Shown piece by piece: positions 4,730-4,894 of a stretch of 5,276 nt of DNA. The number at the start of each line of letters is the position of its first letter. The stretch's first letter is position 1. The stretch is from Candidatus Saccharimonadota bacterium (lineage in GTDB: Bacteria > Pseudomonadota > Gammaproteobacteria > Enterobacterales > Enterobacteriaceae). The stretch is taken from the NCBI RefSeq assembly GCF_012562765.1, contig NZ_CP046227.1, positions 1 through 5,276 on the forward strand. The letters run 5' to 3'. The position numbers and the translations under genes are program-made. Under the pieces are notes generated by a model, which was not told the origin of the DNA, did no database searches, and saw only the letters and a program-made list of their open reading frames with translations.

Positions 4730-4894
4730 TAGACTCGGGATAACAAGTAGCTAGACTCGGGATAACAAGTAGCTAGACTCGGGATAACAAGTAGCTAGAC
4801 TCGGGCTAGACTCGGGATAACAAGTAGCTAGACTCGGGATAACAAGTAGCTAGACTCGGGATAACAAGTAGCTAGACTCGGGATAACAAGTAGC
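4730..4894. repeat. Iteron array: 7 identical 22-bp direct repeats (tagactcgggataacaagtagc) plus one 11-bp half repeat
   Basis: Full copies lie at 4730-4751, 4752-4773, 4774-4795, 4807-4828, 4829-4850, 4851-4872 and 4873-4894. They are head to tail with no spacers and no mismatches. A truncated unit, tagactcgggc, sits at 4796-4806 between copies 3 and 4. The total length of 165 bp equals 7x22+11. Each unit has 10 G/C out of 22 positions, a sharp G+C island in very A+T-rich DNA. The array lies directly upstream of the TrfA-family gene. Confidence 0.95.

Follow-up and report, generated by a model that had tools for sequence, protein, structure and literature searches.

The 5,276-bp stretch of DNA analysed here (the window) is a plasmid of an obligate symbiont, that of the reed beetle Plateumaris pusilla, and our subject is the array of direct repeats that lies upstream of its replication initiator gene, trfA. 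The window contains three genes and no partition (par) genes. An inverse-autotransporter, invasin-like protein gene (1–2808, plus strand) and a gene for a prephenate dehydratase domain protein (2910–3596, minus strand) were identified from the list of open reading frames (ORFs) and Pfam, and trfA, encoding a plasmid replication initiator of 287 aa (3659–4522, minus strand), was identified by Pfam, BLASTP and a structure model. The array as deposited, located by repeat finding and by homologous arrays, occupies 4729–4896, reads on the minus strand with a 22-bp period and contains candidate TrfA sites. It is very likely the iteron block of the replication origin, oriV, of a TrfA-type theta plasmid, with its seven copies and half unit being an artefact of assembly. 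The best protein match of the window's TrfA was the TrfA of the Plateumaris sericea symbiont plasmid (88% identity), the gene order of the sister reed-beetle symbiont plasmids was the same as in the window, and the only close plasmid in PLSDB was that of the symbiont of the reed beetle Macroplea mutica.

The comparison set consisted of the window and 13 further reed-beetle symbiont plasmids (14 in all); the nearest relatives of the window, from Plateumaris braccata and P. consimilis, and all symbiont chromosomes lay outside it. When contigs were scanned, a single TrfA query gave no match, and a query made from a TrfA alignment gave one further reed-beetle plasmid. The symbiont genomes other than that of M. 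mutica had been sequenced with 150-bp paired Illumina reads and assembled by SPAdes 3.12.0, and the M. mutica symbiont had been assembled by Canu from PacBio reads (Reis et al. 2020, PMC7289800). The same paper named trfA and nowhere mentioned iterons or an origin.

The deposited array is made up of seven identical 22-mers, tagactcgggataacaagtagc, starting at 4730, 4752, 4774, 4807, 4829, 4851 and 4873, together with an 11-nt piece, tagactcgggc, at 4796–4806. In the sense of trfA the iteron has the core CTACTTGTTATCCCGAG and the spacer TCTAG. The 17-nt core occurred seven times in the window and not once in 200 shuffles. The periodic tract spans 168 bp (4729–4896), slightly more than the 4730–4894 given in an earlier note on this DNA, which had described the seven identical units, the 11-nt piece and an island of high G+C content; for the deposited letters that description was accurate. 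Each unit has a G+C content of 10/22, and windowed composition gave 0.39–0.44 across the array versus 0.09–0.15 in the flanks. The minus strand of each unit reads TTATCCCGA, a 7/9 match to the DnaA box TTATCCACA. The palindrome TAGCTA, to which the same note had drawn attention, is formed at the unit junctions of the window and is absent from every relative. We found no reverse-orientation copy of the iteron core on the other strand, no other repeat cluster in the window that could act as iterons, and no match to an Rfam family anywhere in the window. Three other classes of element were considered and dismissed: a CRISPR array (clustered regularly interspaced short palindromic repeats), since these repeats lack spacers of that kind; a coding repeat, since no ORF of at least 50 aa runs across the array; and a partition site, since the window has no par genes. 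On its trfA-proximal side the array is adjoined by a G-rich stretch, aaggggtgggtaatcaatac, within 4700–4728, which was not seen in that place in P. sericea, P. rustica or M. appendiculata.

Similar arrays were found in every plasmid of the comparison set. All 14 carry direct repeats with a period of 21–22 bp upstream of trfA, in one orientation and with none on the other strand, and the arrays lie 134–537 bp before the trfA start. The iteron consensus of the symbiont plasmids in the sense of trfA is.CTACttg.TAtCCcGa.tttt, and the 15-nt core that they share is CTACyTGnTATCCCG. Units from different species were identical at a mean of 17 of 22 positions. Where arrays were imperfect (P. rustica, D. 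vulgaris, D. fulgens and D. semicuprea), the variation affected mainly the spacers and the choice between 21- and 22-bp spacing; the D. fulgens array also varied at one core position (T/C). The core TACCTGCTATCCCG also recurs, with a 22-bp period, in arrays lying upstream of trfA in Yersinia pestis pJARS36, in pPstS1 of the Plautia stali symbiont and in Arsenophonus plasmids, and a related form of it was present in Aeromonas pO23AP3. The TrfA proteins of these plasmids are 42–54% identical to that of the window. The comparison with related replicons that the earlier note had proposed thus found the array in 14 of 14 plasmids, unchanged in place and orientation and with its 15-nt core conserved, and the conservation of core and position across related plasmids bears out its view that the repeats would be initiator-binding iterons under selection.

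The two parts of the iteron differ in composition. The G+C content of the core was 0.40–0.60 in the symbiont plasmids and 0.53–0.73 in their free-living or facultative relatives, and that of the spacers was 0–0.43 in the symbiont plasmids, down from 0.29–0.71 in those relatives. As judged from these comparisons, the G+C island would be the product of purifying selection on a binding core of about 15 nt in a genome drifting to A+T. Selection would keep the core G+C-rich while the spacers drift to T-rich, and homogenisation would keep the units identical. The earlier note had offered concerted evolution as a second explanation of this identity, and it too gained support: units are identical within plasmids, including the six units of the long-read M. 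mutica array, and differ between species, which shows homogenisation within arrays. Such homogenisation is usual for iterons. The window would be a natural case in which selection holds a core for protein binding at about 50% G+C and the DNA of spacers and flanks decays to A+T. The analysis also defines an iteron family, with the core CTACCTGCTATCCCG, that is common to the symbiont and the pJARS36-like plasmids, and it gives an annotation to the previously undescribed, very probable oriV of a plasmid kept by every reed-beetle symbiont.

The protein encoded next to the array matched the Pfam family TrfA (PF07042) with 53.4 bits, the cut-off being 22, over residues 54–286. As the IncP-1 reference for TrfA and iteron comparison we used R751, whose TrfA was 21% identical to that of the window over 252 aa in BLASTP (E = 4e-13). 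No NCBIfam model matched the window's TrfA, and a sequence search of the PDB gave no meaningful match. An AlphaFold model built with 48 homologues reached a predicted local distance difference test score (pLDDT) of 86.8 and a predicted TM-score (pTM) of 0.80 and was confident from residue 50 onward. In Foldseek this model matched RepE54–iteron, pi–iteron and RctB domains 2–3 with probability 1.00 and TM-scores of 0.45–0.67. The window's TrfA is thus predicted to have the tandem winged-helix (WH1–WH2) fold of iteron initiators. There was no sign in the window of a long form resembling TrfA-44. The invariant LRSSLF of these TrfA proteins, which BLASTP aligned with GRSAIF of R751 just after ALPND, was considered as a beta-clamp-binding motif; by our reading of the numbering it is not the LF137/138 motif of RK2, and the idea was dropped.

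Between the array and trfA, a consensus scan placed a probable trfA promoter on the minus strand at 4628–4656, with TTGACA as the −35 box (4656–4651), a spacer of 17 nt and GAAAAT as the −10 box (4633–4628). In 14 of 14 symbiont plasmids the DNA that separates the iterons from trfA contains a perfect TTGACA, followed after about 17 nt by a hexamer resembling a −10 box, and the TTGACA was kept although the intergenic DNA has a G+C content of about 10%. This conservation suggests that 4628–4656 works as the trfA promoter. No inverted or half iteron was found near it.

On the other side of the array, an A+T-rich spacer, delimited by sequence and composition, extends over 4897–4960, and from there GATTATAAAA repeats, a probable duplex-unwinding element recognised by Tandem Repeats Finder (TRF) and by conservation, extend over 4961–4988 on the minus strand; read on the plus strand they were reported by TRF as 2.7 copies of TATAATCTTT. 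Repeats of the type (GATTATAAAA)n or (AATGATTATA)n lie on the far side of the iterons from trfA in all the plasmids except that of D. cincticornis, which has a degenerate form. In addition, a 15-nt block, GATTATAAAAGATTA, is invariant in four aligned symbiont plasmids and in pJARS36 and pPstS1. Position and conservation suggest that the GATTATAAAA repeat region would serve as the unwinding element. The number of GATTATAAAA-type repeats varied from 1 to more than 13 between species, in units of 10 or 11 bp, with copy-variable tracts at 155–316 in D. piscatrix, 135–290 in D. cinerea and 189–321 in D. tomentosa (locus coordinates); these counts were taken from short-read assemblies and deserve no more trust than those of the iterons.

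The seven copies and the 11-nt piece of the array have a simple numerical property. A block of 77 bp stands in it twice in exact tandem (2.00 copies, 100% identity): 4729–4805 equals 4806–4882, and 14 more repeat bases follow. An exact period-77 run delimits the two copies, and the second of them is probably an untrimmed SPAdes overlap, as judged by the duplication, a toy assembly graph (below) and the published methods. One in-phase run of period 22 is exactly 77 bp long and lies flush with the trfA-proximal edge of the array (4729). Since 77 = 3 × 22 + 11, two abutting 77-bp blocks necessarily give a phase jump of 11 bp, and the apparent half unit tagactcgggc at 4796–4806 would be the seam of the two copies (77 mod 22 = 11), which reads CTCGGGCTAGAC. 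With its 168 bp, the perfect array exceeds the 150-bp reads, none of which could therefore have determined how long it is.

Duplications of the same length were found in other records of the same study. The P. rustica record (CP046229) begins and ends with the same 77 nt, and exact 77-bp tandem duplications of 2.0 copies were present in D. cinerea (CP046205) at 135–290, in M. appendiculata (CP046221) at 128–282 and in D. semicuprea (CP046211) at 508–661 (locus coordinates, trfA sense). The three internal duplications lie at three different, non-homologous sites. The 77-bp duplication thus occurred in 5 of the 13 short-read records, and it was absent from the PacBio record of M. mutica, where the array consists of 6.0 identical units with no odd piece. 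No other long exact duplication periods were found in the 14 plasmids, apart from multiples of short units and the iteron seam of M. appendiculata, which gives periods of 31, 53 and 75. That array (288–474) has 5 units, an odd 9-bp piece (ATCCTGATG repeated) and then 3.5 units; the second run is 77 bp long and flush with the array edge, so that the odd piece lies 77 bp from that edge, and it looks like a mis-join in a k = 77 graph rather than biology.

For reads of 150 bp the largest default k of SPAdes is 77, and its circular contigs repeat k bases at both ends. We built a toy de Bruijn graph with k = 77 for a circular plasmid in which a continuous array of 22m + 3 bp was set between the flanks of the window itself. 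With m = 5, 6 or 8 the graph contained two branching 77-mers, and joining the long unitig to the shortest loop edge produced a contig of 5,276 nt with identical 77-nt ends. Untrimmed closure of this contig gave a sequence identical at every base to the deposited window, including the odd piece. The graph for m = 4 (91 bp) did not branch; in that case it would be by chance that the duplication lies flush with the array edge. The course of events would have been that identical repeats made a loop in the k = 77 graph of the assembler, that the contig was emitted with identical first and last 77 nt, and that it was circularised without trimming; since 77 bp is 3.5 units, the seam would resemble a half unit. 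The likeness to the untrimmed k-mer overlap of circular SPAdes contigs lies in an exact duplication of length k = 77, and the difference from the usual case is that here the overlap falls inside a perfect 22-bp array and mimics 3.5 extra units.

We conclude that an untrimmed k = 77 assembler overlap has, in all likelihood, produced both the 11-bp half unit and the count of seven copies. They stand in the record and are probably absent from the real molecule. Removal of one 77-bp copy leaves a continuous array of 91 bp with 4.1 units, which is only the shortest array that fits the assembly graph; without counting the duplication, at least 4.1 identical units are supported, compared with 7 cores in the record. 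The true array would be continuous and measure 91 bp or, more probably, 113, 135, 157 ... bp (5, 6, 7 ... units), so that it probably has at least 5 units. Perfect iteron arrays of 80–92 bp were also present in six other SPAdes plasmids, for which collapse at k = 77 predicts 77–98 bp; collapse and true four-unit arrays are inseparable there, and we make no claim about them. At least five published plasmid sequences, the window included, seem to be 77 bp too long because of an untrimmed overlap, and counts of iterons that derive from perfect arrays in short-read assemblies are untrustworthy.

The best-surviving alternative, improbable as we judge it, is that the deposited sequence is correct and that seven units and an 11-bp partial unit arose by a natural deletion of 11 bp or duplication of 77 bp, the partial unit being tolerated because helical phase is kept, as the earlier note had read it. 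The letters do stand in the record, arrays of 5–7 units exist in relatives, and 11 bp is about one helical turn. However, unequal exchange among identical 22-mers shifts arrays by 22 bp, not by 11 or 77, and the duplicated block measures exactly 77 bp and lies flush with the edge of the array. The exact 77-bp duplications that four sister records of the same pipeline carry in unrelated places, one of them terminal, their absence from the long-read M. mutica assembly, a perfect repeat of 168 bp that 150-bp reads could not span, and the exact regeneration of the record from a continuous array under k = 77 all argue for an overlap left by the assembler. The phase-preserving half unit, with its helical-phase argument, and the count of eight halves of one kind versus seven of the other both rest on the probable artefact and fall with it. 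Separate recognition of the two halves fares no better: the odd piece gives it no support, and RK2 TrfA has three DNA-contacting parts (DNA-binding domain (DBD), WH1 and WH2), none of which is sequence-specific alone (PMC8034659). On present evidence the helical-phase and half-site ideas are not worth pursuing.

For binding, unwinding and copy control at this origin we infer the following course. TrfA monomers would sit side by side on cores of about 15 nt, CTACTTGTTATCCCG, which recur every 22 bp (about two helical turns), so that all sites would lie on one face of the helix. The TrfA-bound array would destabilise the adjoining A+T-rich region with its GATTATAAAA repeats. TrfA would then bind one strand of the opened DNA and help to load the host DnaB helicase and the beta clamp, as RK2 TrfA is described to do (PMC4980987), and would help to bring in the polymerase. 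Pairing of iterons by TrfA ('handcuffing') would probably limit copy number, and DnaA would probably not be involved. RK2 iterons are reported to pair plasmids in handcuffing (PMC5397158).

Of the features by which an iteron origin of the TrfA family is recognised in sequence, an initiator gene, its fold, direct repeats, conservation and A+T-rich repeats were all found; DnaA boxes within the origin were not found, and the box is present in pJARS36 and pPstS1. Several points weigh against reading the array as an iteron block with an artefactual seam. In sequence the iteron core is unrelated to the IncP-1 iteron, the one studied by experiment, so that the mechanism is transferred by protein homology (21% identity) and layout. 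RK2 needs DnaA boxes in E. coli, and the origin described here has none; such boxes are optional in some hosts, and RK2 itself can do without DnaA in some of them (PMC4980987), so that their lack here is no bar to membership among iteron origins. The artefact was deduced from sequences and published methods, and the toy graph, built on the window's own flanks and unit, establishes sufficiency, not necessity; a natural 77-bp duplication or 11-bp deletion is conceivable.

A second alternative, which we consider less probable again, is that the repeats are not the origin proper and form a regulatory or partition element, that is, a bank of operators titrating TrfA and so controlling copy number and the expression of trfA, or a centromere. 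A distance of 73 bp separates the array from the probable trfA −35 box downstream of it, and the reported pairing of plasmids by RK2 iterons in handcuffing (PMC5397158) would suit such a role. Against it, the plasmid has three genes only and none for partition, the window offers no alternative cluster resembling iterons, the array adjoins a conserved block of A+T-rich repeats as in classical iteron origins, and no inverted or half iteron overlaps the promoter. Moreover, copy control and origin normally reside in the same iterons, so that regulation would be an added role of the iteron block rather than an alternative to it.

The DnaA box question was addressed by comparison with the same relatives. 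No DnaA box with up to one mismatch was found in 4523–5276. In pJARS36 (2340–2420) and pPstS1 (2010–2085) a perfect DnaA box TTATCCACA, accompanied by an imperfect partner in inverted orientation, lies about 150–190 bp from the iterons, next to the GATTATAAAA block, and is directly followed by GATTATTTT...GATTATAAAAGATTA. The position aligned to this box in the window, approximately 5030–5045 on the minus strand, reads ATATTTATG and contains no box, in an alignment that runs through A+T-rich DNA and is uncertain. In the aligned symbiont plasmids the position is A+T-rich and the box has decayed, while the GATTATAAAAGATTA block was kept. An ancestral layout of DnaA box, A+T-rich repeats, spacer, iterons, promoter and trfA would fit these arrangements.

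The ancestral iteron core reads GCTATCCCG, and the TTATCC of the window derives from CTATCC. Other species have CTATCC, ATATCC or TTAACC at this position, and the leading T occurs in P. pusilla and only some relatives. The two mismatches of TTATCCCGA to the DnaA box lie in its CACA part. The table of orthologues for 26 symbiont chromosomes (Supplementary Data 1, PMC7289800; the table only) contained no entry for DnaA or 'initiator', and DnaA occurred only within the description of PriA. Reed-beetle symbionts appear to lack dnaA, and if this absence holds there is no DnaA protein in the cell for binding. By sequence comparison, the likeness of the iteron to a DnaA box would be drift specific to this lineage. 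The possibility raised in the earlier note, that each iteron doubles as a weak DnaA box so that DnaA and TrfA act on overlapping sites, is scarcely credible: it has the 7/9 match in every unit in its favour, and against it stand the mismatches in the CACA part, an ancestral core of GCTATCCCG with CTATCC, ATATCC or TTAACC in many relatives, a perfect box elsewhere in pJARS36 and pPstS1 at a place that has decayed in the symbiont plasmids, and the gene table without DnaA.

As dnaA is apparently absent and the DnaA box of the plasmid lost, TrfA may perhaps be alone in the cell as a dedicated initiator of replication. In our estimate, the chance that this TrfA origin functions without any DnaA in a host of enterobacterial lineage approaches but hardly exceeds even. 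It is far more doubtful, and a long shot, that iteron-like sites on the chromosome (of the CTACYWGNTAWCCYG type) let TrfA start its replication as well; if true, this would be a second reason, beside the prephenate dehydratase gene, for retention of the plasmid in 26 lineages.

We compared the origin with three groups of known systems. It shares with the IncP-1 oriV/TrfA systems (RK2, RP4 and R751) an initiator of the Pfam TrfA family, direct repeats in one orientation with a core of about 15–17 nt and a period of 22–23 bp, and an A+T-rich region with short repeats beside the array. By analogy, the IncP-1 mechanism (PMC4980987) would be expected here: iteron-bound monomers, unwinding, recruitment of helicase and clamp, and handcuffing. 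The iteron sequences, in contrast, are unrelated (TGACACTTGAGGGGC in R751 versus CTACTTGTTATCCCG in the window); no IncP-1 iteron of the TGACAnTTGAGGGGC type was found, and the iterons extracted from R751 showed no similarity to the window core. In IncP-1 plasmids trfA is remote from the origin, whereas in the window it is adjacent. The order of elements in RK2 is DnaA boxes, iterons and unwinding element (PMC4980987), and that in the window and pJARS36 is (DnaA box), A+T-rich repeats, iterons and trfA. The TrfA proteins are only 21% identical, and the window has neither a DnaA box nor a long form like TrfA-44. The differences in iteron sequence, element order and trfA position indicate that the window origin is not IncP-1 in the strict sense.

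The closest relatives outside the reed-beetle symbionts are pJARS36 (from Yersinia pestis Java 9), pPstS1, the Arsenophonus plasmids and pO23AP3. The pJARS36-like plasmids have the TACCTGCTATCCCG core (pO23AP3 a related form), the 22-bp period and the same orientation and position as the window. They differ in size and content: pJARS36, pPstS1 and pO23AP3 are 19–52 kb long and carry type IV secretion genes, whereas the window has three genes, and the Arsenophonus copies of trfA and iterons lie on plasmids of 20–230 kb or on unplaced contigs. In pJARS36 and pPstS1 the spacers are G+C-rich and the DnaA box is perfect, whereas in the window the spacers have drifted to A+T and the box has decayed. 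No experimental study of pJARS36-like TrfA origins was found in the searchable literature. The true kin of the window origin are the pJARS36-like TrfA plasmids, and it is an ordinary iteron origin of a known kind.

Among the classical iteron replicons, pPS10, pSC101, mini-F and the R6K gamma ori have the layout DnaA box, A+T-rich region, iterons and rep, the same order of elements as in the ancestral layout proposed above. Their iterons of 19–22 bp are like those of the window (PMC4980987), and the predicted fold of the window's TrfA matches the RepE and pi iteron complexes. They differ from the window in belonging to a different Rep family, in using host DnaA and in carrying inverted half-iterons at the rep promoter for autorepression; none were found in the window.

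Several observations concern the genes themselves. The exact TrfA protein of the window was missing from the protein collection, in which the TrfA proteins of 17 sister plasmids were present; trfA may be unannotated or called differently in the P. pusilla record. The product of 2910–3596, described as an enzyme with two functions, chorismate mutase and prephenate dehydratase (Reis et al. 2020, PMC7289800), has only 228 aa. Pfam found in it the PDT domain alone (residues 44–227), with no chorismate mutase domain and no ACT regulatory domain, and this composition would suggest an enzyme free of feedback control. The product of 1–2808, the largest gene of the plasmid, is an inverse autotransporter of the intimin/invasin type with 935 aa (Pfam IAT_beta, BIg21 and InvE_AD). 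The words autotransporter, intimin and adhesin are not mentioned anywhere in the source paper (Reis et al. 2020, PMC7289800). The gene was called in 12 of 13 sister plasmids, being uncalled in M. appendiculata, and is unannotated in the M. mutica record. Such a protein could bear on the switch of the symbiont between extracellular and intracellular lifestyles.

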